Translations under genes and position numbers: made by a program
Notes under the pieces: generated by a model
What the model was told of the DNA's origin: nothing
Database searches by the model: none
Seen by the model: the letters and a program-made list of their open reading frames with translations, nothing else
Shown here: positions 3,497 through 64,000 of the stretch, one piece after another
Position numbering within the stretch: position 1 is the first letter of the stretch
Layout: every line of letters starts with the position of its first letter
Source: a virus
Taxonomy: Duplodnaviria; Caudoviricetes
Strand: one strand, 5' to 3'
Virus record (IMG/VR): IMGVR_UViG_3300037483_000750
Coordinates: 6,940-70,939 of that record
Length of the DNA: 64,000 nucleotides

Positions 3497-3525
3497 ATTA
3501 TCCCCCTATGTCCCGATTGTGTCAA
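3497..3525 (-). promoter_or_regulatory. Sigma70-type promoter for the LCP module
   Basis: TTGACA (3525-3520), 17-nt spacer, GATAAT (3502-3497). Confidence 0.75.
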
Positions 3526-14698: not shown

Positions 14699-15984
14699 AC
14701 CACCGCCACCTTCGGTCGACGCTCCGCCGTTCCAAACACCGCCCGCCAGGCCTCAACCTGGCCCCGCTTCGTCCCAAAGGGGTTCCGGACAATCTCGTCG
14801 GTCATGTAGTAGCTGTCGCCGCCGGTCGCACTCCGGCTCAGGTCCGTGCGCCAATCCTGGACCAGTGCCTGAACGCTCTTGCAGCTGCACAGCGGGCGCT
14901 CGAGCTTGCAAACCGTCAGCATCGCCACCAGCCGGGCCCACTCCTCCGGCATCGGGTCGCAGGTCTCGCCGCTCAGGAACTCGTCGCTCTGGTCTCCGCT
15001 CTGGTACCACAGCTTCACCAGCTCCGGCTCCCGGCAGACTGTCCACGCGTCCCGTGTCCAGACCCCATTGGTCTCGTCGTAGCTCGCGGGAGTCGGAACG
15101 ACGAAGCCTCCATGGAGGTCCCGGACGTGAACGCACCCATCCTGGGTCGTCAGCTCGCAGGCCGTGCAACCCGTTCCGCTGCACTGCGAACAGATGCCGT
15201 TGATGAACGTCGATGGGCTGGGCTCCCAAAAGAACTGCGCGCTCGGTTGCGTGAAGTCCGTGTATTCCCGGTAGACATCCACCGTGGTCTCGTAGTTCGC
15301 GCTCGCAGCCAAGTCGAGAGCGGTGGTGCCTTGGTCCGTTGGGAACTTCTCCCACAGCGAAGGCTTGATGAGCTGCCAGCTGTAGAAGGTCAGGACCGTG
15401 TTCACCCCGCTGAAGACCTTGGCGATAGCCGGTCGAATCTCCCACTCCGGCTTGCCGCTCTTACCAGCGAAGTAGGCCTTCACCTCGCAGGCGTCCGTCA
15501 CTGCCGCCGGCGTCGGCACCGTGATGGTGGCCATCTCGCTGTAGGTGTCGCCGTCCGGGTCGCTCCGCACAACGGCTGAGCCGGCCTGAATGACTGTCGT
15601 CGCCCGTCGGCCAGCCTGGAGAAACTTCGCATGCCGCAGCTTGATGGACTTCGGCATTCCTCGGATGTCGTAGCCGCTTCCCCGAAGCTCCCTGCGGTAG
15701 GGCTTTGGGAATCGGTAGACCTCCTCCACCTCGTACTTCGGGCCGGGCCAGAACCCCAGCTGGCTCGCCAGCTCGCGCTCGCTGTCGCGGATGGCCCGGG
15801 CGATGGTCTCCCGGCTGACGCGGTCCACGGCCTGCCAATCGTACTGGTGGATGACCATCCCGCAGGAACCGGACGAAGGCATGATGCTCCCGCCGGCCGC
15901 CCCGTTGAAGTGCGCCGGATTCAGCCCGATGATGGCTGCGAAGCGGTCCAGGGGCAGTATCGTCCGGATGCTTGCTCTAGCCAT
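14695..15984 (-). CDS. Putative head-tail adaptor/connector
   Basis: 429 aa between the capsid region and tail tube; internal CSQCSGTGCTAC Zn motif. Synteny-based call. Confidence 0.5.
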   Translation of the reverse strand: MARASIRTILPLDRFAAIIGLNPAHFNGAAGGSIMPSSGSCGMVIHQYDWQAVDRVSRETIARAIRDSERELASQLGFWPGPKYEVEEVYRFPKPYRRELRGSGYDIRGMPKSIKLRHAKFLQAGRRATTVIQAGSAVVRSDPDGDTYSEMATITVPTPAAVTDACEVKAYFAGKSGKPEWEIRPAIAKVFSGVNTVLTFYSWQLIKPSLWEKFPTDQGTTALDLAASANYETTVDVYREYTDFTQPSAQFFWEPSPSTFINGICSQCSGTGCTACELTTQDGCVHVRDLHGGFVVPTPASYDETNGVWTRDAWTVCREPELVKLWYQSGDQSDEFLSGETCDPMPEEWARLVAMLTVCKLERPLCSCKSVQALVQDWRTDLSRSATGGDSYYMTDEIVRNPFGTKRGQVEAWRAVFGTAERRPKVAVV

Positions 15985-30589: not shown

Positions 30590-31062
30590 TCTGGGTCCAC
30601 CTTCACCGGGACCGTGACCGTCCTGTCCTGGCAGCGGCACAGCTCGTCATGGTTCGGGACCCAAAAGTGGTGGACGTTGCAGGCCAACTCAGCCTTCCCG
30701 CGGGCCTTGCAGCTGCACCATTCCCCATGCTCGTTGTGGAGTTTCCACCACTGGTCCGGGGCCTGTTCGAAGTTCCTGTCGAACAGAATCTCGTCGCCGT
30801 CGTGCGATAGGAAGTGCGTTCCCCCATGCCCCCGGTAGGGGATGGGCAGGTCGACGTTGGTGTAGGTCTCCCGCAGCTCGTAGTCCCCGAGGGACTTTCG
30901 GATGCCGAAGCAGGCGTGAGCGCAGGTCAGGAACTCCAACCTCACCGCCGAAGTCGATAGCGGGTCGAACATGGAGATGGCCGCTGGCGTCCCTGGTGGG
31001 TCCACCGTCTCGGTGTAGAACTCCGCCCGTCCATAACCGTAGTCGATGACATACTTGTTCAT
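30586..31062 (-). CDS. Hypothetical protein with C-terminal Cys/His cluster
   Basis: GGAGGG RBS; WCSC...CNVHH...CRC. Confidence 0.6.
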   Translation of the reverse strand: MNKYVIDYGYGRAEFYTETVDPPGTPAAISMFDPLSTSAVRLEFLTCAHACFGIRKSLGDYELRETYTNVDLPIPYRGHGGTHFLSHDGDEILFDRNFEQAPDQWWKLHNEHGEWCSCKARGKAELACNVHHFWVPNHDELCRCQDRTVTVPVKVDPE

Positions 31063-31098
31063 TCGCCCTCCTTCCGGGCTGGCCCGCGGTTGCGCCGG

Positions 31099-38918: not shown

Positions 38919-40355
38919 TTACGTCCCCGAAGAACCTAATCGCCGCACTTTGGCCCGGGCCACTTCCCCTCGGATGCTCGAGACGACGTAGCGTAGCGCG
39001 TCGAGCAGGTGGAAGGTCTGCTTGGCTTCCACGTCCTTAGTCACATTCCCGAGGCGGTCCCGTTGGTAGCGATAGCGGCTGAACTCGTCCAGAAGGCCCG
39101 CCAGGTCATCGAACACCACCAGCCCGGCGGTCTTGACCGTAGCATACACTCGGTTGATGCCGAGGTCAACGTCTCGTATCGGTGGTGGAATGACACCCAA
39201 TCCCCCTGAAGCGAACTCCGTGCGCCATTGGTCCTCGCTGCTACTGCCTCCATAAGTCCTGGGGCGGCCCCTTTCCCCCTGGAGTATGTCCTGGACATGC
39301 CCACTGGCCAGCTTCCCGCCCCCCATGTAGATGCGGTACACGAATAGGCGGAGCGTCGTCGGCTCCTCGGCCAGGAACACCGCCGCCGTGTGCTGACCCC
39401 CGAAGTCCAGGCCCAGGTAACGGGTCCAGTCGTCCGGAATGGCGAAGCGTGGGCAGGTGTTGCGCCCGCCGGTCCGGTCAAAGCAGTCATAGACGAGCGT
39501 CCGGCTGCCAACCCTCCGGCCCCGCAGGAAGCTCTGGAACTCGTCGTCGGGCAGCTCCGTCCGGGCCTTCTCGTATTCCTCCTCCGGGAAGGCGGGGTTG
39601 GCTATGGAGTCGAACTGCACCAGGCCTATGTCAGCTTGGGCGTTGTCCGTCACTTCGACCACGGCCCCGTTCGGTAGCTTCTCGACCTTTGTCTTCCCAC
39701 CCTTCTGCGCCTTCTGGATGACATCGGTGTCCACCCAGCCCGGGTCGTACAGCGTCGAAGTCATCAGCAGCCGGCCCCGGTACAGCGTCAGCCGCCGCTT
39801 CAGCGCCTTGAAGCTCGCATAGGTGAACTTGTCCTGGCCGCACTCATCCGCCCAGGCCGCCTTGGCCGTTCCGCTCTCCAGGCCTCCCTTGCTGTCGGCC
39901 GACCGCAGGATGATGCGGGCCCACATCGGGTCGTCCGATTCCCTGGCCAGGAACGCACCGGTGTCCGGCTCCGCCAGCTCGAGTATCTTGTCCCCTGCCC
40001 AATAACGTCCGATGCCCAGCGTGTGCTCGAAGTACTGGAGCAGGGCTGGCAGCATCTTGAGCTTGAACAGGTCGTAGGTGGCGCTGACAGCGAAGTAATC
40101 GCCCGGGCCCCGGAGTCCTATCTCCCGGTCCATCCATGCCGGCCCGAAGATGGTCTTTCCCCCCTGGTACCCGCTGAACATCCCGATAAAGCGCCGGGGG
40201 CAGGCGTAGGAGAGTTCCTGCCCCCGGTGGAAAGGCTCCGGCTCGCCCGTCTCCGGGTCGAGCACGTGGCTCTCGGGCAACTGGTCTGTTCTGTCTCTGG
40301 CCTCCGCCGGCAGGAGGTCTCTATAAACATGCCAGGCAAGTTGGTTCATCCCCAA
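38919..40355 (-). CDS. terL: Terminase large subunit
   Basis: Walker A-like SGYQGGKT, Walker B AWADE, nuclease motifs GLDFGG and HLLDALRY. Confidence 0.92.
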   Translation of the reverse strand: MGMNQLAWHVYRDLLPAEARDRTDQLPESHVLDPETGEPEPFHRGQELSYACPRRFIGMFSGYQGGKTIFGPAWMDREIGLRGPGDYFAVSATYDLFKLKMLPALLQYFEHTLGIGRYWAGDKILELAEPDTGAFLARESDDPMWARIILRSADSKGGLESGTAKAAWADECGQDKFTYASFKALKRRLTLYRGRLLMTSTLYDPGWVDTDVIQKAQKGGKTKVEKLPNGAVVEVTDNAQADIGLVQFDSIANPAFPEEEYEKARTELPDDEFQSFLRGRRVGSRTLVYDCFDRTGGRNTCPRFAIPDDWTRYLGLDFGGQHTAAVFLAEEPTTLRLFVYRIYMGGGKLASGHVQDILQGERGRPRTYGGSSSEDQWRTEFASGGLGVIPPPIRDVDLGINRVYATVKTAGLVVFDDLAGLLDEFSRYRYQRDRLGNVTKDVEAKQTFHLLDALRYVVSSIRGEVARAKVRRLGSSGT

Positions 40356-52890: not shown

Positions 52891-53204
52891 GTTCGCGCCT
52901 CGGGTGGCGCGGCTGCTTCGGACTCAGCGCATTGGCCCCGAATCCTGCGGGCCTTCGCCCGGGCGACCTCGAGGGTCATATCTCCGGAAAATGCGATGTC
53001 GGCCAGAGCGCCCATCAGTACCTCCACCTGATTGCGGAGGCCAGCGGCATCCGTCACAGCCTGCAGGACTTGGCCCACGTCCCACTTCCGCCCGCAGTCT
53101 TCGCAGACTGCTCCCCACATCGTCACCTGAATGGCTATGACAGTTGTGATGGCGGAAATCTCTGGCTGGAGCCGCAGATGCTGGCAATCGGCCTGGTTCA
53201 GCAT
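52887..53204 (-). CDS. Hypothetical protein with CxxC
   Basis: CEDC motif; coupled by overlaps. Confidence 0.5.
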   Translation of the reverse strand: MLNQADCQHLRLQPEISAITTVIAIQVTMWGAVCEDCGRKWDVGQVLQAVTDAAGLRNQVEVLMGALADIAFSGDMTLEVARAKARRIRGQCAESEAAAPPEART

Positions 53205-53422
53205 GCGAGCAACCAGTGCTGCTTGTCGGGGTCTTCAAGGCACTGCGCTGGGATTGGATGCCCGTCTGCGGTCACCTTCTGCTCAGCGACCGTCCAGGGG
53301 CTCGCAATTCCGGTCGGGCTGTCGATGTTCGCCCAGGCGACAACCTCTTCGGCCATTGCAGTCTTCGGCGCGCAGACAATCAGATGCGCGAAGCCAACTA
53401 TCCGTGAAGTCATTTCTGCCAT
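53198..53422 (-). CDS. Small hypothetical protein
   Basis: AGGAGG RBS. Confidence 0.55.
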   Translation of the reverse strand: MAEMTSRIVGFAHLIVCAPKTAMAEEVVAWANIDSPTGIASPWTVAEQKVTADGHPIPAQCLEDPDKQHWLLAC

Positions 53423-53486
53423 GCTCGTCCTCCTCGCTTTCCCCTGGTCCGGTGACCAGGGGAAAAGATGAAGGTCGAACTCGTTC

Positions 53487-54430: not shown

Positions 54431-55888
54431 CTAGGCTTGCCGCTCGCCCGCCTCCGCCATCTTCTTCTCGATGTACTGATTCCAAATCGCCCTGGCCTCC
54501 GTGATGGCCATCGGCGCTGGAGCCCACTTCGCTGTGAGACGGTCCTGCCTGGCATCCAGCCACTTCAATGCCGCCGTCAGTTCTCCGCCGTCCCAGGCCT
54601 CGAGGCTCGGCTTACCGGCGAGGAAGTCCTGGACGCCATGCCGCATGTCGTCCCGCATGACGTCCGTCCCATCGAAGCACTGCTTCAACAGCATCGCCAC
54701 GTGGGTTCGCTGGTCCTTCGCCGGCTTGAGCTTCCCGTAGTACTCCGCCTTCTCCTTGAACCGCTGGCGCACATCATCCGGGGACCACGGCCGGTTGCTG
54801 GTCGTCTGCTCCGGCCGGGATGGATACAGCGTCTCCTTGGCCACCGTCACCTGCGCCTGGCGCTCGTCCGGCGTGGCGGTCGCCCATTCCTCCTTCTGGT
54901 CCTCCGCCTGAGCCAACGCCTCTGCCTCGCGTTCGAATTCCTCCCCGCTCAGGTGCTGATCGGCGGCGACCTTCGCAAGGTCATCCAGTTCCGTCCAGCC
55001 GGCGTCGACCACCGGACCGTCCGGTAGCCCGAGGTCGCTGTCGACCTCTCCCAGTCCCGCTCCGCTCGGCTCGATGTCGAACGGGAGGTCGGCTTCCTGT
55101 TTCCAGAAGTGTGCCTCGGCTCGCTTCCGGGCCCGCTGGGTGTGCGGATACCGAGGCGGCTCGGCGTAGGTCTCCTTGGCGCAGTCCGGGCATGGAGCGA
55201 AGCCTCGCAGCTCTCGACCCTTCCACTTGCCCCCTCCGGTGGCCTTCCGCTCGACCGTGTTCAGCTCCGGCTTCACGCTGCACTTGTGATACCAGCGCGG
55301 GTTGTCGAGCTTCTCCATCTCCTCGGCCGTGACGTAACCGTACCCTTCGCTCACCGGCGTCTGGCCGAGCAGGGCCTCGATGCGGTCCCACGGAGCACCG
55401 GCGGCGGCGAGCGTCTTGGCGTTCTCGGCGTACAGCCTGACCTTGGCCGGGATGCGCCCGATGCACTTGTAGGCCAGCGCGCCATCCGGGATGTGAAGCG
55501 ATTCCCGATCGACGGCGCTCGTGATATGGATGAACTGGAGGTCTGGCCGGCCAGCGCCCTCCGGGAAAATCTCATCCAGCTGCTCGTGGCCTTTGCGTCT
55601 CAGCCCACGTATCTGCGGGAAGAACCCGTTTATCCAGGTGCATTCCTGGGTGACCGGGTTCAGTCCCGTCGCAAACGCGGCCTGGCACAGCGCCCATACC
55701 TCCGCGGGCTTCCAGTTCTTGGCCCCCGGGAGCATGAACTTGACGCGGTTCACCAGCTCGGCCAACTCCTCTGGCGTCCCGTAGGGGATGAGCCCGGCCG
55801 AACGCCGGACCACCATCGACCGGCTCGTGACGTGCTTCTCCCTCGCTGCTGCCTCCCTCTGGTCCGGTGCCTTCGTCGTATCAGCCAT
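54431..55888 (-). CDS. RecT/Bet-like ssDNA annealing protein
   Basis: AAFATGLNPV..E...F.PQIRGLRR, GYG and ARKRAEAH motifs; acidic C-terminal extension. Confidence 0.55.
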   Translation of the reverse strand: MADTTKAPDQREAAAREKHVTSRSMVVRRSAGLIPYGTPEELAELVNRVKFMLPGAKNWKPAEVWALCQAAFATGLNPVTQECTWINGFFPQIRGLRRKGHEQLDEIFPEGAGRPDLQFIHITSAVDRESLHIPDGALAYKCIGRIPAKVRLYAENAKTLAAAGAPWDRIEALLGQTPVSEGYGYVTAEEMEKLDNPRWYHKCSVKPELNTVERKATGGGKWKGRELRGFAPCPDCAKETYAEPPRYPHTQRARKRAEAHFWKQEADLPFDIEPSGAGLGEVDSDLGLPDGPVVDAGWTELDDLAKVAADQHLSGEEFEREAEALAQAEDQKEEWATATPDERQAQVTVAKETLYPSRPEQTTSNRPWSPDDVRQRFKEKAEYYGKLKPAKDQRTHVAMLLKQCFDGTDVMRDDMRHGVQDFLAGKPSLEAWDGGELTAALKWLDARQDRLTAKWAPAPMAITEARAIWNQYIEKKMAEAGERQA

Positions 55889-55963
55889 GCTATTCCTCCC
55901 GCTAGGGCCGAGCGCCCTGCAACCGGCCGGAGCCGACTCCGGTCGGTGACACGGTGCTCGAAG

Positions 55964-56362
55964 CTATTCCTGGGTCCCGGTCCGGCCGTCGAGCCAGTCC
56001 TCAATCTCCCGGCTCGTGATGCGGAATCCGCCCCACGCCGCCCCCTTGGCAATGAAGTGCCATTTGAAGTCCTGATGGAGCTTCCAGGCTCTCGGGCAGC
56101 AGGCGTTCTCGAACCGTGTGGCCTCGATGACCGTCTGCCGCTCATGGAAGTGGTCCGCCAGGATGCTCAGCGCCAGGTCCGCCGGCCCGCTCCCGCCATA
56201 GCCCGTCTCAAATCCGTCCGGGCTGTGTACGATGACGTGCGTCAGTGGCTCCCTGGTGATCGCCCGGCTGCCGAGATAGGTCACGACCTCAGCCGTGACC
56301 TTGGCCGATTGCCCGTTCCTCTCGATGATGTAGACGTTCCCGTCGTCGGGGTGGTTTGCCAT
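55964..56362 (-). CDS. DUF6166-like protein
   Basis: HSPDGFETGYGGSGPADLAL...HQDFKW motif. Confidence 0.75.
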   Translation of the reverse strand: MANHPDDGNVYIIERNGQSAKVTAEVVTYLGSRAITREPLTHVIVHSPDGFETGYGGSGPADLALSILADHFHERQTVIEATRFENACCPRAWKLHQDFKWHFIAKGAAWGGFRITSREIEDWLDGRTGTQE

Positions 56363-56381
56363 GCGGTTTCCTCCTGTCCGA

Positions 56382-56410
56382 ATTATGCCATCCTGTCCCG
56401 ATTGTGTCAA
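56382..56410 (-). promoter_or_regulatory. Sigma70-type promoter
   Basis: TTGACA (56410-56405), 17-nt spacer, CATAAT (56387-56382); shares 22 bp with the promoter at 3509-3530. Confidence 0.8.
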
Positions 56411-56907
56411 CCCCCAACTTTCCGGCTGTCCAGGTACGCGGCGGCCACGCTCCCCGGCCTAGGGGGCAAGAACCGCACGAACACGACCCGGTAGGTCTCC
56501 CTCCGGATGCTCACTGCTGCCATCCGATAGCCGTCGCCAGGCTTGAAAACCATCCGGTGGTGGTTCCCCATATCATCTCCCCACCTGTGGCTCGCCTTCC
56601 ATCCATCCACCTCGAATGGCGCAAGTGCTTCATCGACCTGAGCGGAGGTCGGCTCGAAGGTCCCGTATTCAATCGTCACCTGCTCATGCTTGACGTCTCG
56701 GGTCCAGCCGGCCAGCTCCGTATTGCCCAAACGGAACTCGCATGGCATCTCTCCGACCCCGGTGACCGCTCTGGCGAAGTCCAGCATTTGCATCTGGACC
56801 TCAAGCATTCTCGTCCGGCTCATCCCGTCAGTCAGCTCGATAACAATCGTCTCTCCCTCGAAGCCCGTCCGCCGGACGATGCTGATGCTCCCTGGCAATG
56901 TTTTCAT
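56407..56907 (-). CDS. Hypothetical protein
   Basis: ATGA overlap with the C5 methyltransferase stop. Confidence 0.6.
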   Translation of the reverse strand: MKTLPGSISIVRRTGFEGETIVIELTDGMSRTRMLEVQMQMLDFARAVTGVGEMPCEFRLGNTELAGWTRDVKHEQVTIEYGTFEPTSAQVDEALAPFEVDGWKASHRWGDDMGNHHRMVFKPGDGYRMAAVSIRRETYRVVFVRFLPPRPGSVAAAYLDSRKVGG

Positions 56908-57893
56908 CCTGCCCTCCTTGTCTCCATGTAGGCTTTCACGAACGCTGCCGCTTGCGGGACGACGACCGCATTGCCGTAGGCGCGCAATCGTCCCACTCGG
57001 CCGGGAACCCCATGAGCCAGCGGGAAAATGCCGGGTTGAGTTGGCCGCGTCTTCCCGTCGGTGCAGGGGAGCCATTCGGCGTCGGACCAGAAGCCGTTAG
57101 TTGCACCTGATGCGTCAGGTCGATTTGCTTCCCGCTCTCCATGCGTCGAAGGACCGCGTTTAGACTCTCTCCGTGGTGGTAGCGCGTGTTCGGCGTCGCC
57201 CAACTCGCCAACAGGGCCTGCTCGTTCAGTGGTCGGCTGTTCGTTCCCTGCTGATTGAGACTCGCGCCCTTCACGTCCCGCGCCTGAGGACTCGCCCAAC
57301 TCGCTAACTCTGCTACCGCTTGCAGGTCCCCGCCCCCGCTCTCTGTCCGCCCCAGTTCCTTCTTTCTCTCCCCCGACTCCGGGCCGCCCGTCGGCGTCCG
57401 TGGCGTGGGCCACGAAGTAAAGCCGCTGTCTGATGTGCGGAGCCCCGAACCCCGCAGCGCATAAATCCAACGCCGCGACGGCGTAACCCTCGGTTTCCAG
57501 ATCAGATTGAACAACGTCGAGCCAAGCAAGTCCGTCACCATTCGCAACCTGCTCACCAAAGATGACTGGAGGGCGGCGCTCTCGGATGAGCCTGAACCAC
57601 TCCGGCCAGAGATGCCGAGCGTCATCTGTACCGGTGCGCTTCCCGGCGACGGAGAACGGCTGGCAGGGGCAACTTCCGGTCCAGACGGCTCGGTCGTCTG
57701 GCCATCCCGCGAGTCGGAGGGCAAGCGGCCAGCCTCCGATGCCTGCGAAGAAGTGCGATGTCGCCGAGCAGTCTTCCGCCTGTAACTCATGGATGCTCCT
57801 CCCGTCCACCTTCCCCTCCGGCAGATGCCTCGCAGTGATTAGGTTTCTCAACCACTCTGCCGTGAATGGGTCATTCTCGTTGTAGGTCACCAA
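56904..57893 (-). CDS. C5 cytosine DNA methyltransferase (alpha chain)
   Basis: FFAGIGG, GSCPCQPFS, FGEQV, PHIRQRLYFV and RAYGNAVV motifs. Confidence 0.93.
   Translation of the reverse strand: MVTYNENDPFTAEWLRNLITARHLPEGKVDGRSIHELQAEDCSATSHFFAGIGGWPLALRLAGWPDDRAVWTGSCPCQPFSVAGKRTGTDDARHLWPEWFRLIRERRPPVIFGEQVANGDGLAWLDVVQSDLETEGYAVAALDLCAAGFGAPHIRQRLYFVAHATDADGRPGVGGEKEGTGADRERGRGPASGSRVSELGESSGAGREGRESQSAGNEQPTTERAGPVGELGDAEHALPPRRESKRGPSTHGEREANRPDASGATNGFWSDAEWLPCTDGKTRPTQPGIFPLAHGVPGRVGRLRAYGNAVVVPQAAAFVKAYMETRRAG
56936..57790 (-). CDS. Nested alternative-frame ORF, putative methyltransferase beta chain carrying motif IX
   Basis: Three W(P/A)(T/S)P repeats and GQLNPAFSRWLMGFP (motif IX-like), which the main frame lacks. 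Confidence 0.65.
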   Translation of the reverse strand: MSYRRKTARRHRTSSQASEAGRLPSDSRDGQTTEPSGPEVAPASRSPSPGSAPVQMTLGISGRSGSGSSESAALQSSLVSRLRMVTDLLGSTLFNLIWKPRVTPSRRWIYALRGSGLRTSDSGFTSWPTPRTPTGGPESGERKKELGRTESGGGDLQAVAELASWASPQARDVKGASLNQQGTNSRPLNEQALLASWATPNTRYHHGESLNAVLRRMESGKQIDLTHQVQLTASGPTPNGSPAPTGRRGQLNPAFSRWLMGFPAEWDDCAPTAMRSSSRKRQRS

Positions 57894-57960
57894 GTCACAC
57901 CTGCCTATAGGCGCGTGAAGACCCCCGGCTTTCGCCGGGTGGTCTCACGTCGTATCGGCT

Positions 57961-58161
57961 TCAGCTGACATCAACCCACTTCATGGTCGTCTCGAGAACC
58001 TTGTTGTAGTCGCCGGACGTCGCCTCCTTGATGAAGGCATCCCGCACTTCCTTCTCCAGACCGGCCTTCCGCATTGCCCTCGTCACTGCTCCGATGATGG
58101 CGTAGGCGTTGCCGTCGTGCCCAATCAGCTCAACCTTTACGTTCGGATACTTCGGTGCCAT
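57961..58161 (-). CDS. Small conserved phage protein
   Basis: LIGHDGNAYAIIG.V..AMR.AG...SGDY; AAGGAGG RBS. Confidence 0.65.
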   Translation of the reverse strand: MAPKYPNVKVELIGHDGNAYAIIGAVTRAMRKAGLEKEVRDAFIKEATSGDYNKVLETTMKWVDVS

Positions 58162-58391
58162 CAGGCCTCCTTTGCCAGCGTCACGACGTACTCGCTGCTG
58201 TCCGGCTTCCTGCCGAGTAGCGCCAACGGTAGGAAGATGAAACCGAGGCAGCACGTCTTCCAGAAGGACCAGCCTTCGCTCTTGTTGAACACCTGGAAAT
58301 GTGTACAGCGCCAGCCATGCTTCTCGTTGTCGTGTATCCAGGCCTCGGCCGCCTTGCGGTTGTTGAATGTCCTGACAAATACTCCTTCCAT
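58161..58391 (-). CDS. Small membrane-associated protein
   Basis: AAGGAGG RBS; hydrophobic CCLGFIFLPLALL; TGATG overlap. Confidence 0.6.
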   Translation of the reverse strand: MEGVFVRTFNNRKAAEAWIHDNEKHGWRCTHFQVFNKSEGWSFWKTCCLGFIFLPLALLGRKPDSSEYVVTLAKEA

Positions 58392-58520
58392 CTCGCCTCC
58401 TTCGCAGGCCGTGTGCCCGCTCGGGCTGGGGCAAGAACGGGCCACCTCGCGAGAAGCCCGTCTCACCCCAGCCCGACCGGGGCAGAGCCTCTCGTCGCTC
58501 TGCCCGGCCCTACACCTCCT

Positions 58521-58643
58521 TTACTTGGCCATCTGCTTGATGATGGTGGACTCGACCTTGGTCACATCCGCCTTCGGTGCCTGCTTGGTCAGCGGTGCAC
58601 AGGCGGACAGAACCAGCAGTGCGAGTACGATAATCCGTTTCAC
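58521..58643 (-). CDS. 40-aa lipoprotein
   Basis: GAGGAGG upstream; MKRIIVLALLVLSAC lipobox. Confidence 0.6.
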   Translation of the reverse strand: MKRIIVLALLVLSACAPLTKQAPKADVTKVESTIIKQMAK

Positions 58644-58713
58644 CTCGTTACCTCCTCTCATGGTTGGGCCGTCCGAGCTGCCCCGGTCGCACCCGGAGCA
58701 GGGTCGCACGGTC

Positions 58714-59172
58714 TTACCGTTTCCCGGCCTTGAGGTCGTCGTAGATTTTCTCCGCTGCTTCCAGGTTCTCAAGGCTTTCGTCCTCGGCGTCCCTAAGCAC
58801 AGCAGCCCGCTCCTGAGCTGCTGGCTCTGGTTCGTAGGGCTCGGGGTCGGCCTTCGGCCTCGGTGCTGACTTAGGCCGCGCCCTCCACCAGGCGCGATGC
58901 TCAGCCACCTTCCGCCGGCGGGCACTCACAAGGCGCACCGCCTTCCATCGCTTCGGCTTCGTCCGGGCTCCCGGACCGATGGGCTTGTAGCTCCAGGTCC
59001 AGTAGTTGCCCTCGGTGTCCGGGTGCGTCGTGTAGCAGTGCATCCAACCTCCAGCCCGGTAATACCGATAGCGTCTTCCGCCCTCAATCTCGATGCGTCG
59101 CCCCGTCTTTGGGTTCCGCATACTGAAGAGGTCCTCCGTCAGCTCTGCCAGGAGCGCGTTCACTTCGTTCAT
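58714..59172 (-). CDS. Hypothetical basic protein
   Basis: ATGA overlap with the upstream gene. Confidence 0.55.
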   Translation of the reverse strand: MNEVNALLAELTEDLFSMRNPKTGRRIEIEGGRRYRYYRAGGWMHCYTTHPDTEGNYWTWSYKPIGPGARTKPKRWKAVRLVSARRRKVAEHRAWWRARPKSAPRPKADPEPYEPEPAAQERAAVLRDAEDESLENLEAAEKIYDDLKAGKR

Positions 59173-59354
59173 GTCAGGCCCTCGCTCAGGCGGTAGGCCG
59201 ACGTGACCAGCTGGACCAGCTCCTTCTCGTCCATCGCGTCGACGATAAGCACGACCTTGGCTTCCTTAGCGGTCCGGGTCACAACCCGCAGGGCCGCTCG
59301 GTCGATGATGCGCCGAATCCGGCGCGCGTGCCACTTCTGCTTCCCTGTGAACAT
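59169..59354 (-). CDS. Small hypothetical protein
   Basis: AGGAGG upstream. Confidence 0.5.
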   Translation of the reverse strand: MFTGKQKWHARRIRRIIDRAALRVVTRTAKEAKVVLIVDAMDEKELVQLVTSAYRLSEGLT

Positions 59355-59356
59355 CC

Positions 59357-59536
59357 CTATCCTCCTCTCGCTCGGTCGCCCCGGGCTCGCTCGCGTTCAT
59401 TGCAGTACCAGTGCCCCCCCTTGCCCTGAACCATCACGACCTCGGTTCGGCTCTTGCCACAGAAGTGGCAGATTCGATAAGCCGTTCCCTTACCGTTTCC
59501 ACTCGCCGTCGGGGGCATCTTCCGTCGGAATGCCAT
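59357..59536 (-). CDS. ClpX-type Zn-finger-like small protein
   Basis: AAGGAGG RBS; ICHFCGKSRTEV..VQGKGGHWYCNE resembles the ClpX C4 Zn-binding domain. Confidence 0.55.
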   Translation of the reverse strand: MAFRRKMPPTASGNGKGTAYRICHFCGKSRTEVVMVQGKGGHWYCNERERARGDRARGG

Positions 59537-60326
59537 GGCCGCCTCCTTCCATCGGGACTGGCAGAAGTTCGTTGGTGCTCCACGGCATGTACTTCTCGTA
59601 ATACGGCCGCAGGCTGGGCGGGATGGCCTGCAGTAGTCCGTGGTCGTCTGTGTCATAGTCCCGCACCATCCGGAACAGTTCGGCGTACAGTTCGCACCAG
59701 CCGCCCCATTCTCCGGGCCGCAGTTCGTATCCGACTCCGGGGAAGCCCACGATTCGTTCGCTGGTCAGTCTGACCCAAGTCTCGTCTTCTCCCGGCGGGA
59801 AATAGGGCCCGACCGCGTTGCCAGCATCGTCCCGGTGGTAGTAGCGGTCTGCAGCGCTGATTGCGGTCCATACGTCCACCTGGAACTTGGCAGAACTGCA
59901 TGGCCGTCCTTCAATGCGGTCAATGAGATGTCCTGCCTCATGGGGGATACACCATTCGAATTCATCCGGGTTGAACACTCCGTCCCTGACGACGTAGAAG
60001 ATGTAATCTTCTCCGCCGTTGACATAGCACGCATAGGTCTTGTCTCCGGCCACGTCGAGCACGAGGGGAGTTCGGCTCAGGACATCGTAGAAGGCATCGG
60101 TGTAGCCCTGCGGCCAGTAGCTCAATGCCTGGATGTCGCTCAGCCGGATGATGTCCTCGGCCAAGTCATCTGGCGCTTCGGTTTCCGTCGCCGCTGGCGT
60201 GGCCACCACATAGGTTACCTGTGGCTCGGCATTCACCTGGAATACTCCGACAAGAAACGAACCCAGCCCCACCACTGTGAATACAAAGATAGCAATTGCG
60301 AACCAGTATCCCCTGTCGTTAGCCAT
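59490..60326 (-). CDS. Membrane-anchored HExxH zinc metallopeptidase-like protein
   Basis: N-terminal TM, P/T linker, IPHEAGHLID and a downstream ELYAELF. Confidence 0.7.
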   Translation of the reverse strand: MANDRGYWFAIAIFVFTVVGLGSFLVGVFQVNAEPQVTYVVATPAATETEAPDDLAEDIIRLSDIQALSYWPQGYTDAFYDVLSRTPLVLDVAGDKTYACYVNGGEDYIFYVVRDGVFNPDEFEWCIPHEAGHLIDRIEGRPCSSAKFQVDVWTAISAADRYYHRDDAGNAVGPYFPPGEDETWVRLTSERIVGFPGVGYELRPGEWGGWCELYAELFRMVRDYDTDDHGLLQAIPPSLRPYYEKYMPWSTNELLPVPMEGGGHGIPTEDAPDGEWKR

Positions 60327-60407
60327 GTCTGGTCTCCTTCCACCATCGGGCCGGTCGCCCGAGAACGGGCAGGACCTATGTCCCGCCCGTGGTTCCGATG
60401 ACCGGCG

Positions 60408-61422
60408 CTACTTCATCAGCTCAACGAACGCTCGGACCTTCGTCTGCGCGCGCCCGCCGAACAGGGCTGCCACATAGGGGTCCTCTGCCGTGCTCGCCGC
60501 CTGCCGGTAGTCCTCTTCCTCGACCACCGCGTTGTAGAGAGCCCAGCCCGTCCCAGCCAGGGCTCCGTCGACGGCCGTCTGGCTCAGACCACCGTAGATG
60601 GCCTTGACGCGAGTCTTCCGTTCCTCCAGCCGCTGGCGGGTCGTCTCGAAGGACCGCTCCGCATCGAGCATCGCCTGCTGGAGCCCGGCCAGCGCCATCC
60701 GGCTGGTCTCCTCCGGCGTCAGCTCCTCGGCCACCTGCATCTTCCGTGGCTTGCGGGGCATCGGATACGCCGCCTCGAGCACGTCGTCCACCCGCTCGTC
60801 GGTGAGCTTCAGGTCCGCCAGGAGTTCGAACATGGCCATGACCTTGCCAGTCGAGCGCAGCCTCGACCTTCCCGCTGTGGCGCAGCGTGGCGCTCATGAT
60901 CGCCGCTGACGTTCCCATCACCAGCGTGTTCTGGCACACGACCCGCACCGGTGTGAAATGCAGGGCGATGCCGCTCCCGCCGTTCTTCGTGTCCGTGACC
61001 AGGAAGAACTGGCGCACCGGGTCGCCCCGGACTTCGGCCTGGCCGGCGTCCAGCGTCACGAACACCGTCTCGCCCTGACCGAGGACACCGATGGTCTCCA
61101 CCGGCCACTTCTGGCTCAGGGTCTCCAGCTTCCCGACCATCTCGCTGTGCTGGAGGTAGCTGTACTGCTCGCCGCACACCCCCAGCATCCGGTACTGGGG
61201 GTCGTCCGGTGTCGGCTGGCGCACCAGCCCGTAGTGCCCGCTGGCGACGCTGAACCCGCCCATGTCAAGCATGAGCGGGACCTTCTCGATTCGGACGTCG
61301 GCCAGGCCGACCAACTCGGCGGCCTCGCTCGCCCGCTTCGGTTCGGTGAACACCGTGCCCTTGTGGTGCCACGCGGGCTTGAGGTGTACAGCGACCCGTC
61401 TTCCCATGATGTTGTCTGCCAT
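60408..61422 (-). pseudogene. DUF932 (LGT_TIGR03299-like) gene split by a frameshift near 60845
   Basis: The N-part (PAWHHKG, LGVCGEQY, TPVRVVCQNTL) and C-part (GTGWALYNAVVE...LFG...K) are in different frames. Confidence 0.75.
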
Positions 61423-61489
61423 GTTTTTCCTCCCCGGGCTGTCTGCCCGCGTGCCCCGACGACTTTCCGTCGTCGGGGCTGGCTGGCTT

Positions 61490-61975
61490 TCAGCGGTACT
61501 TCTCCGCCAACATCTTCGCTTCTTCCACCAGGAGCACCTGCTCAATGACGTTCTTCTTCGTGTTGAACGCCCTCGCGATGTTCTGCGTCAGCTGCCGGAT
61601 GTCGGTCCGGGCCTTGTCGAGCTGCTTGGCGACGTCTTCCGTGCTCGCCTTCTCGACCGGTTCCACCTGGATGCCTTGGATGAAGTAGAAATCCGCCCGG
61701 TGGTTCGGTCCCTCGTTCCGATAGGCGATGGCCCCAGCGAGAGCCGCATCCAGGCTCGAGAATGCTTCGCTGGTGCTCCTGCGGTTCACCCAAACGTGGA
61801 AGGACACCGCACCGGGGTCCATAAAGCCCGTCCGCACCGTCACGCCTTCGACCATCCACGGGTGATACTCGAGGATGACGTAGGGCCCCGCGCTGTACCA
61901 CCGGACCACCTCGCCCCAGGTGAACTTCCCACCGCCGCGGTCGAGCTCGTCAAGGCTTGTCGTTCTGCGTTCCAT
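61490..61975 (-). CDS. Early hypothetical protein
   Basis: AAGGAGG RBS with ATG at 61975. Confidence 0.65.
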   Translation of the reverse strand: MERRTTSLDELDRGGGKFTWGEVVRWYSAGPYVILEYHPWMVEGVTVRTGFMDPGAVSFHVWVNRRSTSEAFSSLDAALAGAIAYRNEGPNHRADFYFIQGIQVEPVEKASTEDVAKQLDKARTDIRQLTQNIARAFNTKKNVIEQVLLVEEAKMLAEKYR

Positions 61976-62040
61976 CGTGGCCTCCTTGGGGTGATGTCCC
62001 CACCAGCGCCGCCGTCCGCAGACCGCGGCGCAAGGTCGGG

Positions 62041-62289
62041 CTACCACACGTTCGCTACGACGTCCTCGAGCCTGTCCGCTTCGTCTCTCGTGCAGACGGC
62101 GTAGATGCTGGCCACTTCCTCTTCGCCAGCGTAGTCCGGCTTCGCGAACGCCACCGCCGACGCCGGCCTTGCCTGCTTCTTCCGCAGGTCCGCCAACGTC
62201 TCCCGCACCACGCGGGTAACTGATTCGCCCGCTGGCCGGTCGACCGAACCGATATAGACCACAGTCTGGTGGACGAAAGCCGTTGCCAT
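62041..62289 (-). CDS. Early hypothetical protein
   Basis: AAGGAGG RBS. Confidence 0.65.
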   Translation of the reverse strand: MATAFVHQTVVYIGSVDRPAGESVTRVVRETLADLRKKQARPASAVAFAKPDYAGEEEVASIYAVCTRDEADRLEDVVANVW

Positions 62290-62384
62290 GTTGCCTCCTT
62301 GGGCTGGTGCGCCCACCGCCGCTCCCGAGCATCAGCGTTCGGGAACGGAGGGTCGGTGCATCAGGGATTGCTCGGGGCTGGAAG

Positions 62385-62678
62385 TCAGTCGAAATCGCCG
62401 CCGTCTTCCCCGCCCTCGTCCGTGTAGTCCTGAGCAGCTCCGAAGTCATCGAGCATGTCGGTCGCTGGCGGCGGCCAGGTCTTTGGGTCCAGATTATCGA
62501 GTAGCAACTGGCGGTCCATCTCAGCCTCGACATCGAACCGGTCTTCCGGCTCGCGCTCGTCGAACGCCGGGGCGCTGTCGTCCGAAGTCTGGCTTACCAG
62601 TGTCATCGGCTCCATCGCCGCCCGATGGTCAGCGGCTTCGTGCTCTGCCTGCGTCGGGGCCATCCTCGTTCGCTTCAT
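62385..62678 (-). CDS. Highly acidic early protein
   Basis: AAGGAGA RBS; Asp/Glu-rich. Confidence 0.6.
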   Translation of the reverse strand: MKRTRMAPTQAEHEAADHRAAMEPMTLVSQTSDDSAPAFDEREPEDRFDVEAEMDRQLLLDNLDPKTWPPPATDMLDDFGAAQDYTDEGGEDGGDFD

Positions 62679-62746
62679 GGAGAGTCTCCTTCGGGCTGAC
62701 GTGCCCGATGCGAGGTCGGACTTCCGTCCGGCCCCGCCGCAGTCCG

Positions 62747-62977
62747 TCAGCGTCCAAACACCGTCGTAATCTCAAGTTCCGTGCCCGCCGTGCCATACGC
62801 GTACCAGGGTGCTCGCGTGTCCGCGTCATAGGCCAGCTTCCGGCCCCGATCGACGTTCGCCAATGCCTCGTCGTGGGTGTCATAAGGTCCGAGCAGGAAC
62901 CCGCTGCGCTGGCCGTCCTTCACTGAGACGTAGAACTTGAATCCCGCCTCATGCTCCCGTCCGCAATCGCAAGCCAT
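62747..62977 (-). CDS. Early hypothetical protein
   Basis: AGGAGG RBS; MACDCG...LLGPYDTH.EAL. Confidence 0.65.
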   Translation of the reverse strand: MACDCGREHEAGFKFYVSVKDGQRSGFLLGPYDTHDEALANVDRGRKLAYDADTRAPWYAYGTAGTELEITTVFGR

Positions 62978-63042
62978 GTCGGCCTCCTCGGGCTGACTGC
63001 CCGCGCTCAGGCCGGAGGTCGCTCCGGCCCGATGGCTGGTCG

Positions 63043-63285
63043 TCAGCAGGCTCGCAGGTTCTCCGCTCGCCGCTCCATCATCAGGGCGATGCGATGCTTG
63101 CAGATCGTTCCGTTGTAAACGCTGTCCGGGCAATCGCAGGCTCGGATGCTCGTCCGGTACTCCGTCGTCCGGCGCTTCGTCTGCATCAGCCCGAACGCCC
63201 GGTTCACCCGGGCCTCGTCCAGCTGACCGCGTCTCGCCGCCGCCCGGGCTCGGTTGTAGATGCGGAATGCAGTGCTCTTGTCCAT
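63043..63285 (-). CDS. SWIM zinc-finger protein
   Basis: CDCPD......ICKHRIA. Confidence 0.8.
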   Translation of the reverse strand: MDKSTAFRIYNRARAAARRGQLDEARVNRAFGLMQTKRRTTEYRTSIRACDCPDSVYNGTICKHRIALMMERRAENLRAC

Positions 63286-63400
63286 CTCCGTTTCCCTTTC
63301 TCGGGCCCTGATTGCCCGCGCCGCCCGGCGACTCCCTTCATCCTCTCGGATGCAGGTGGTTGACGCATGCCGTTCGCGTGTCGTCGGGCGGGGCCGGAGT

Positions 63401-63580
63401 TCAGGCTTCGTTCGCGTTCCGGATAGCCGCATTCGCGGCACCCGAGACGCTCTTGCCCTGCTCGTACCAGTCACGATAAGGGCAGTCTGGAAGGTCGTAC
63501 GCGCTCAGGCCGATGCGCTGGCTGATGAGGACGTCGACGAGGTGCATCCAACGTTCAAAAGTCGTATTCCGAATGGCCAT
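63401..63580 (-). CDS. Small early phage protein
   Basis: AAGGAGG RBS; DLPDCPYRDWYEQG motif. Confidence 0.65.
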   Translation of the reverse strand: MAIRNTTFERWMHLVDVLISQRIGLSAYDLPDCPYRDWYEQGKSVSGAANAAIRNANEA

Positions 63581-64000
63581 GTTAGGCCTCCTTGATGGGA
63601 TGATGCCCGCATCCCTGCGGCCGACCTGCGCTCGTTGTCGGTCGCAGTGCATCCGGGTATCGCTCCGGTGAGCGTTTTCGCCCAGGTCCGCCGGTCACTC
63701 GTTCGGCCGGTCGGCCTGGGCCTACGTCCCTGACGACAGCGCCAGACCGCCGTCGCACTCCAACCTGCCCGGGGGTCTCCCGTAGGGCTTACGGTCTGAA
63801 CGGAGTATCGCGATTCGGCCTCACGTCTGGCGCTTGCGTCAGGGTCCGACTTTCGTCGGGCCCTGTTGGGTTTCATCTCTGTCTCGCGGGGGGTTCGCCG
63901 GTGGGGGGTGTTCCATGGGCTCGGCCTCGTGGCCCAGCCGCCCGGCTTTCCGCTCTGGTCCTCTGCGCCTGCTGGTCCGTTCGCCTGGTTGTTTGGGGGT

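Follow-up and report, generated by a model that had tools for sequence, protein, structure and literature searches.

A 64-kb stretch of the virus record IMGVR_UViG_3300037483_000750 (hereafter, the window; record length 70,939 bp), derived from sediment metagenomes, was analyzed for a hairpin-bearing module that recurs between the genes located at 55.9-63.6 kb. The window has a G+C content of 63%, and nearly all of its genes are carried on the minus strand. Tailed-phage markers include a tape-measure protein, a large terminase (TerL; 38919-40349), an endolysin-like peptidase, and glycosyltransferases. A 127-bp direct repeat is present at the record ends (window 63874-64000 equals genome 1-127), and the genome is therefore probably complete and circularly closed; the repeat more likely arose where the assembly of a circular or permuted genome overlapped itself than as a true terminal repeat. 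The terminase is ≤24% identical to those of cultured phages, none of which is close. Relatives with 40-55% identity (loci L137-L157) sit mostly in Chloroflexota metagenome-assembled genomes (MAGs) of Anaerolineae, Caldilineae, Ardenticatenaceae, and Dehalococcoidia, with one relative lying within a 277-kb contig, so the host probably belongs to the phylum Chloroflexota rather than to Actinobacteria.

The 55.9-63.6 kb region is the beginning of a long minus-strand gene array that adjoins a non-coding stretch of approximately 1.1 kb and a set of divergent genes on the plus strand. All genes in the region are on the minus strand, and their products are small proteins without known function, a SWIM-finger protein, a DUF932-like protein, and a DNA methyltransferase. 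Based upon position and gene content, the region is presumed to be early, and the array is presumed to be carried on one transcript.

At the junctions between these genes, a module of constant layout was found, which on the mRNA strand consists of a stop codon, 12-15 nt, a long hairpin (P2), 3 nt, a short hairpin (P3), 0-9 nt, a Shine-Dalgarno (SD) sequence, and an ATG. The spacer from the stop codon to the next gene is typically 71-87 nt. All nine of the small inverted repeats that a first-pass annotation had placed in this region are present, each lying just 5′ of an SD and ATG on the mRNA, within the interval that separates a gene's stop codon from the SD of the following gene. Eight of the nine are copies of a single element; the hairpin at 63597 was excluded (9.8 bits, E 2.8), and a copy that had been missed was recovered at 58405-58419 (CGGGC-acacg-GCCUG, with one G.U pair). 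The distance to the SD, annotated as 0-6 nt, is 0-5 nt in seven and roughly 9 nt at 60347-60361. The second, longer hairpin reported upstream is present as well, with 10-12 bp, and 1-5 nt (mostly 3) separate its end from the small hairpin.

A related locus (L005, a 22.6-kb metagenome contig with 65% G+C) was reached via homologues of the 161-aa protein encoded in the region. This contig shows synteny with the window that extends to the divergent gene set, and shared proteins are 47-75% identical. The module was found at 10 or 11 of its junctions with the same geometry as in the window. A covariance model was then trained on seven L005 copies only and run on the genome, where its top nine matches were the nine window copies (35.6-16.4 bits, E 8e-8 to 0.03), all on the minus strand and within 55886-63327. 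Using a model of P3 plus SD (filters off), the nine copies scored 25-36 bits and the next match ≤16.7 bits. Elements were located at 9 of 19 gene starts above 54 kb and at 0 of 68 below (Fisher p 2e-7). A single weak look-alike (31060-31095; 15.5 bits, E 0.06) is found ahead of a gene of the late region. The pattern CGGGC-N4-8-GCCCG occurs six times in the window versus 2.3 expected in shuffles, with five of the six in 60.3-63.3 kb, and whole spacers fold more stably than dinucleotide shuffles (z -2.5 to -6.3). A further model (R2), built from three similar copies, recovered part of the family and matched the antisense strand too, and its alignment was for these reasons left out of the counts. 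A U-rich 10-bp hairpin on the minus strand (UUUCCCCUGG...CCAGGGGAAA, 53438-53465, 11 bits), 3 nt ahead of the SD of a 74-aa gene (53198-53422), is not a member.

Searches were extended to other sequence collections. Close relatives of the 161-aa and 485-aa proteins were not found in the viral contigs searched, and close relatives of the 485-aa protein were not found in the genome contigs searched. The exact element pattern gave 0 matches in viral contigs, and a general P3-SD pattern gave 120+ single, seemingly random matches; L017, the sole locus with multiple matches, was rejected, the matches falling within coding sequence. A TerL relative with 77% identity (L001) is a 51-kb record without the element, from which the early region is probably missing. 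Among more distant kin, the module was also not seen in five MAG genomes with TerL relatives, in the 70-kb contig behind L138, or in five lower-GC phages having the 161-aa gene family.

The geometry of P2 was measured on 14 compact copies. P2 starts 12-15 nt past the first base of the stop codon in 11 of these, has a length of 26 nt in eight and of 26-30 nt in 13, and comprises 11 bp in nine, mostly with a 4-nt loop; the gap between P2 and P3 is 3 nt in nine copies. Its stem sequence is wholly different between copies and differs even where the flanks are identical in both phages (61420-61492 versus L005 9914-9988). When the eight 26-nt copies were aligned without gaps, 95.5% of cells were paired and two-sided changes were observed in 10 of 11 pairs, with a covariation score of 0.92 versus 0.22 in shuffles, a figure inflated by the picking of P2 as the best hairpin before aligning. 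The real finding is the constant size and position of P2. Whole spacers processed through MAFFT and RNAalifold yielded P3 alone, because P2 is unalignable by sequence. Several P2 tips share CCGGAG-N4-CUCCGG (e.g., window 63012-63027 and 55927-55942, L005 9283-9300), in which an SD-like GGAG is paired to an anti-SD-like CUCC; this may reflect common descent or be a functional hint.

Hairpins as stable and GC-rich as P2 (-16 to -24 kcal/mol), present after almost every early gene, could act as weak terminators or pause sites without a U tract that set the gradient or timing of early transcription. However, no P2 hairpin was found to be followed by a U run (GCG, ACG, and similar follow), and no GC-rich hairpin with a subsequent U run was found on the minus strand of 52-64 kb, whereas the late region of the same phage has canonical hairpin-plus-U terminators (~23270, 27690, and 16290). 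This role would also leave unexplained both P3 and the flank pairings described below (P0 and P1), and it is considered distinctly improbable.

In the short, 5-bp hairpin, the consensus arms (C)GGGC and GCCC(G) enclose a loop of 5-7 nt. Across 18 copies from the two phages, 96.7% of P3 cells are paired and the stem GGG/CCC is unchanged, with compensatory changes at two pairs, the outer (C-G/U-A/A-U) and the inner (C-G/G-C).

The two hairpins that had been described are only one of two competing folds. Minimum-energy folds often pair the stretch before P2 with the 5′ arm of P3 (P1) and the stop region with the P3 loop (P0). Duplexes between a spacer's own 5′ and 3′ flanks reached -16.0 kcal/mol versus -12.1 for mismatched partners (permutation p < 2e-5, with 0 of 50,000 permutations reaching the observed value), with a mean z of -2.2 against shuffled flanks. 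For P0, a 12-nt window placed on the stop codon was matched against the P3 loop, extended by two bases, and the longest run of contiguous pairs came to 4.8 bp with a copy's own partner, as opposed to 3.9 with the partners of other copies and 3.5 when loops were shuffled (p 5e-5). A rigid symmetric-register flank test was weak (0.48 versus 0.40 paired), and these bulge-tolerant energy and run-length tests were used instead. Examples of P0 are GCUGACG/CGUCAGC and CUGAUGC/GCAUCAG, as well as GUAGGA/UUCUGC at a UAG stop, and the P3 loop changes along with the stop codon (UGA-UCA; GUAGGA-UUCUGC). The loop endings CA or CG noted in the first-pass annotation are thus real and are accounted for by pairing with the upstream stop codon, the loops ending in CA because they are the complement of the stop UGA. 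Stacked together, P0 (4-7 bp), P1 (5-6 bp with one mismatch), and P2 (11 bp) produce an irregular hairpin of 20-24 bp that reaches from the stop codon as far as the second base of the 3′ arm of P3. This composite hairpin and P3 are mutually exclusive, and 0-8 kcal/mol separate the composite from the two-hairpin fold. As far as could be found, the combination of stop-codon pairing, a competing hairpin at the ribosome-binding site, and a fixed 11-bp hairpin is undescribed.

A competition between folds so close in energy could constitute a ribosome-sensing switch or insulator that operates without cleavage. A ribosome at the upstream stop codon would melt P0 and P1 and halt at the foot of P2, P3 would form beside the SD, and the module would signal upstream translation to the downstream start or shield start sites from neighboring sequence. 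The stop codon itself lies within P0, P2 begins 12-15 nt after it at about the front edge of a terminating ribosome, and masking of the stop region (mimicking such a ribosome) raised the predicted P3 probability from 0.34 to 0.80. Predicted SD accessibility, however, was nearly unchanged by masking (0.55 to 0.60), so that no unmasking mechanism is visible; unmasking of the SD by an upstream ribosome was modelled and was unsupported. In the late genes of this phage, coupling is achieved by plain overlaps of stop and start codons, and the constant 11-bp size of P2 would be left unexplained. We regard this switch as rather unlikely.

An operator for a phage or host RNA-binding protein, by which translation of the early set is switched on or off, would be suited by a P3 stem that is invariant while P2 is free to vary, by its fixed position beside the SD, and by its confinement to early genes. 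The P3 outline GGG-N7-CCC is also similar to that of the start-associated sequence (SAS) of Cluster K mycobacteriophages (PMC3203893). Conversely, loop sequence and length vary, which stop-codon pairing accounts for and a common motif does not, no RNA-binding protein was recognized among the early genes, and stem conservation may also follow from the pairing of P3 with two partners, making such an operator quite unlikely. Lambda-type nut sites (a boxA followed by a 5-bp hairpin whose pentaloop is rich in purines, present once or twice in an operon) were not matched, with boxA-like CGCTCTT in no element, variable loops, and nine copies. Short conserved palindromes that recur in the intergenic regions of an early operon are likewise reminiscent of double-stranded DNA repressor operators, such as the L5 stoperators or the phiC31 conserved inverted repeats. 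The half-site spacing of P3 varies by 1-2 bp, however, its compensatory changes preserve pairing and not half-site identity, and the covarying flanks would be without a role. No integrase was found, and the phage may for this reason not be temperate; a repressor operator is thought very improbable indeed.

The nine copies, all on the minus strand, are described here from the start of the array onward, with bit scores from the L005-trained model and z scores for spacer folding. The module at 63283-63403 (24.0 bits, z -2.54) precedes the 80-aa SWIM-finger gene (ATG 63285), with P3 at 63302-63318 and a long hairpin at ~63320-63393 that has a large apical insert. Ahead of a 76-aa gene (ATG 62977), the module at 62975-63045 (30.1 bits, z -3.13) includes the upstream stop at 63043-63045, P2 at 63007-63032, and P3 at 62989-63003, which is abutted by the SD. 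The 97-aa gene (ATG 62678) follows the module at 62676-62749 (20.3 bits, z -2.93; P2 62710-62737, P3 62691-62708), in which the loop CGUCAGC pairs with the stop region GCUGACG. At 62287-62387 (30.3 bits, z -3.14), before an 82-aa gene (ATG 62289), P2 is at 62319-62348, P3 is at 62300-62315, and 24 additional nt follow the stop codon. The copy at 61973-62043 (34.4 bits, z -2.70; P2 62006-62031) precedes the 161-aa gene (ATG 61975) and has the GGGG/CCCC variant of P3 at 61988-62001. The highest score was obtained at 61420-61492 (35.6 bits, z -6.27), before the DUF932-like gene (ATG 61422), with P2 at 61453-61479 and P3 at 61435-61449; this copy scored 99 bits with the R2 model, in whose training set it is included. 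Before the 278-aa gene (ATG 60326), the module at 60324-60410 (16.4 bits, z -4.16) has P2 at 60365-60390 and P3 at 60347-60361, with the SD ~9 nt beyond P3.

The copy absent from the earlier list is located at 58389-58523 (19.2 bits, z -5.81; 28.8 bits with the P3 plus SD model), before another 76-aa gene (ATG 58391), and consists of two long hairpins followed by P3 at 58405-58419, with a counterpart at L005 13579-13821. The two long hairpins (58428-58512) are very stable (whole spacer in the window, -83.6 kcal/mol), larger than at any other junction, and partly conserved at L005 13600-13790; they might represent a small RNA or a pair of terminators. The final copy, at 55886-55966 (16.8 bits, z -2.77), precedes the 485-aa gene (ATG 55888) in a second transcription unit and has P2 at 55922-55947 and an AGGGC/GCCCU variant of P3 at 55904-55918. 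The leader of the first gene (ATG 63580; 63578-63700, minus strand), which holds the excluded hairpin at 63597, folds no better than shuffles (z -1.55) and is matched by L005 8222-8296 at 89% identity. Ahead of the first early gene, window 63602-63987 and L005 7605-8296 share ~300 non-coding nt with 68-89% identity; this conserved stretch holds an 11-bp hairpin at 63840-63865 and is possibly an early promoter or control region, or an origin.

A promoter-like site of the sigma-70 type, close to consensus (TTGACA-17-CATAAT with TG; 56382-56410, minus strand), is located in the sole early spacer without hairpins, and the equivalent spacer in L005 is at 14920-14962. Ordinary host-type promoters are on this account apparently used by the phage, and the elements are not such promoters. 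The DNA-hairpin (N4-type) promoter that had been suggested is not supported, given this site and the lack of a giant virion RNA polymerase gene (largest open reading frame 988 aa). A 17-mer, TTGACACAATCGGGACA, occurs twice on the minus strand (56394-56410 and 3509-3525), each time beginning a near-consensus sigma-70-type promoter; one site heads the second early transcription unit, and the other precedes an LCP gene module near the other genome end.

Variation among near-identical strains was examined by using DNA contigs of four sediment metagenomes. Strain variants preserve the geometry of the module. One strain contig (run X2) is without 24 nt at 62361, by which the atypical stop-to-P2 distance of 39 nt becomes the usual 15 nt, and in a contig from the same run 52 apical nt of the oversized hairpin at 63332-63385 are replaced by 10 nt. 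In one strain contig, a P3 loop base is missing at 63306. The DUF932-like gene itself (60408-61422, minus strand) contains a +1 frame change near 60,880, with both halves matching phrog_1221; the L005 ortholog is intact (354 aa), a strain contig has 35 additional letters at 60845-60847, and the window copy may either have lost 35 nt or contain an assembly error.

Between the window and L005, at least three single-gene presence/absence differences are bounded by elements. These involve a 97-aa gene (62385-62678) found in the window only, and an 88-aa gene (L005 9650) and a 72-aa gene (L005 10578) found in L005 only; a 278-aa gene (59490-60326, window only) has an element upstream only and overlaps the next gene on its other side. 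At non-orthologous junctions, DNA similarity begins exactly at the stop codon, and aligned segments begin or end at or within ~25 nt of the P3-SD end (window 62750-62686 and 62314 onward align to L005 9264-9329 and 9309 onward). This position of the gain and loss breakpoints is compatible with the recombination handle proposed in the first-pass annotation, and also with its modular expression unit, of which a discrete unit, repeated at early junctions and conserved in L005, is upheld. A crossover role for the conserved P3-SD patch is compatible with all RNA-level readings.

The same differences could instead point to a site of cassette recombination at the DNA level, either a folded single strand like the integron attC site or a homology patch for phage recombinases in which the palindromes are tolerated passengers. 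An attC site is also an imperfect palindrome of ~60 nt that follows each promoterless, co-oriented small gene up to its stop codon, with a conserved inner part, a mismatch, and a variable tip, an outline shared by the composite hairpin, and single-gene cassettes differ between relatives at these sites. Unrelated genes are followed by the same type of element, folding energy is without strand bias, and a RecU-like resolvase is encoded nearby. The outer helix of the element, however, varies from copy to copy, P0 being fitted to each upstream gene end rather than forming a constant recognition box, and fixed distances to the stop codon and SD suggest a transcript. The attC end cores RYYYAAC and GTTRRRY are absent from 17 of 18 elements, with one chance match each, and no integron-type tyrosine recombinase (PF00589) was found in the 70.9-kb genome, compared to matches in 14 of 14 control genomes. 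An element acting mainly on DNA, as a recombination site of either kind, is judged improbable.

Our preferred reading, held tentatively and somewhat short of an even chance, is that the element is an intercistronic RNA processing and stabilizing module like the RNase III sites of T7. In T7 early mRNA, host RNase III cuts irregular intercistronic hairpins and leaves protective 3′ hairpins, and bacterial mRNAs are protected by 5′-terminal hairpins. The element would act in cis on the early polycistronic mRNA, with its long irregular hairpin serving as a substrate for a double-strand-specific endoribonuclease, for which host RNase III is the obvious candidate. Cleavage would occur at the base of P2, the upstream cistron would retain P2 as a 3′ cap, and the released P3 arm would fold into a 5′-terminal hairpin directly before the downstream SD; given the 3-nt spacer between P2 and P3, both hairpins would be at the new ends after the cut. 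Each early gene would thereby become a stable message that is translated independently. The conserved P3-SD patch of 20 nt would be the only homology between unrelated neighbors, and therefore, as a by-product, a crossover point for single-gene exchange. In favor of processing, the element is restricted to the early region, is co-oriented with the genes, and lies between stop and SD, and one helical turn of any sequence suits a double-stranded-RNA protein that reads shape.

The T7 sites (R0.3 to R1.3) are the nearest functional analogue. They are irregular hairpins of about two turns located between early cistrons of one long transcript, their sequences differ from site to site, and the hairpin ends a few nt ahead of the next ribosome-binding site. 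The elements here likewise run from stop to SD within the first 8 kb of the array, and P0, P1, and P2 together form an irregular hairpin of at least ~20 bp with internal loops. T7 relies on the host enzyme, and no RNase III gene was found in the present phage genome. The differences are that no sequence relationship exists, that the conserved P3 competes with the lower stem, which takes in the upstream stop codon, and that cleavage is established for T7 but proposed for the element here. No Rfam 15 family was matched at the gathering threshold, with sub-threshold microRNA-hairpin look-alikes only.

The nearest genomic pattern is provided by SAS and extended SAS (ESAS) repeats of Cluster K, in which a motif is repeated within a few nt of the start codons of non-structural genes only, in one orientation, and before genes of different families, in many cases behind an inverted repeat whose spacer varies. 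The function of these repeats is still unproven (PMC12699233). The SAS is a 13-bp asymmetric sequence containing the SD, whereas here the SD follows the hairpin, and GGGATAGGAGCCC with ≤2 mismatches was not found 3-8 nt before start codons (best matches, 4-6 mismatches). The 17-bp ESAS inverted repeats have a conserved sequence without RNA-pairing support, in contrast to P2, which is free in sequence and covaries. Enterobacterial repetitive extragenic palindromes (REP) with their mosaic elements (BIME) and the plastid intercistronic expression element (PMC2230500) are also structured intercistronic elements that stabilize or process messages to yield translatable units. REP are genome-wide repeats with conserved sequence, however, the plastid element acts via a bound protein, and neither has stop-codon pairing or an SD-adjacent hairpin.

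Several observations weigh against processing, in addition to the inflated covariation figure for P2. Sense and complement strands fold with equal energy (mean difference -0.1 kcal/mol, p 0.75), and G.U pairs outnumber A.C mismatches in P2 by only 8 to 3, both of which are compatible with a DNA-level structure; the assignment to RNA consequently rests on context, namely the fixed distances to stop codon and SD. The P3 stem sequence is conserved, which would be unneeded for a mere end cap. The element occurs in two genomes only, representing few independent evolutionary events, and the candidacy of RNase III is tied to a host that is probably, by its terminase relatives, a member of Chloroflexota.

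A two-state RNA at each early junction, with a long helix burying the upstream stop codon or a short hairpin by the next ribosome-binding site, flipped by the terminating ribosome and doubling as the boundary of cassette exchange, is viewed as unlikely. If true, it would be a phage "punctuation mark" linking translation and the fate of messages with gene shuffling, and in function it would resemble an integron attC array minus the recombinase.

A few model phages (T7 and SP82) provide the known cases of structured elements between cistrons of early operons, and the start-codon-associated repeats of Cluster K remain unexplained after 15 years. The present element follows unusually clean rules (one hairpin fixed in length but free in sequence, a second, conserved one beside the ribosome-binding site, and pairing to the upstream stop codon), which give sharp and cheap predictions for RNA ends, RNase III cleavage, and two-gene reporters. 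It belongs to a phage lineage without cultured relatives, probably infecting Chloroflexota, for which there was no prior knowledge of the control of gene expression. The 60-base spacers most likely cut, stabilize, or insulate early messages and most likely mark the sites at which single genes are swapped between related phages. If so, the module would be a natural, portable "insulator plus stabilizer" part for operon design in high-GC hosts, and a concrete case of regulatory punctuation that doubles as the seam of phage mosaicism.

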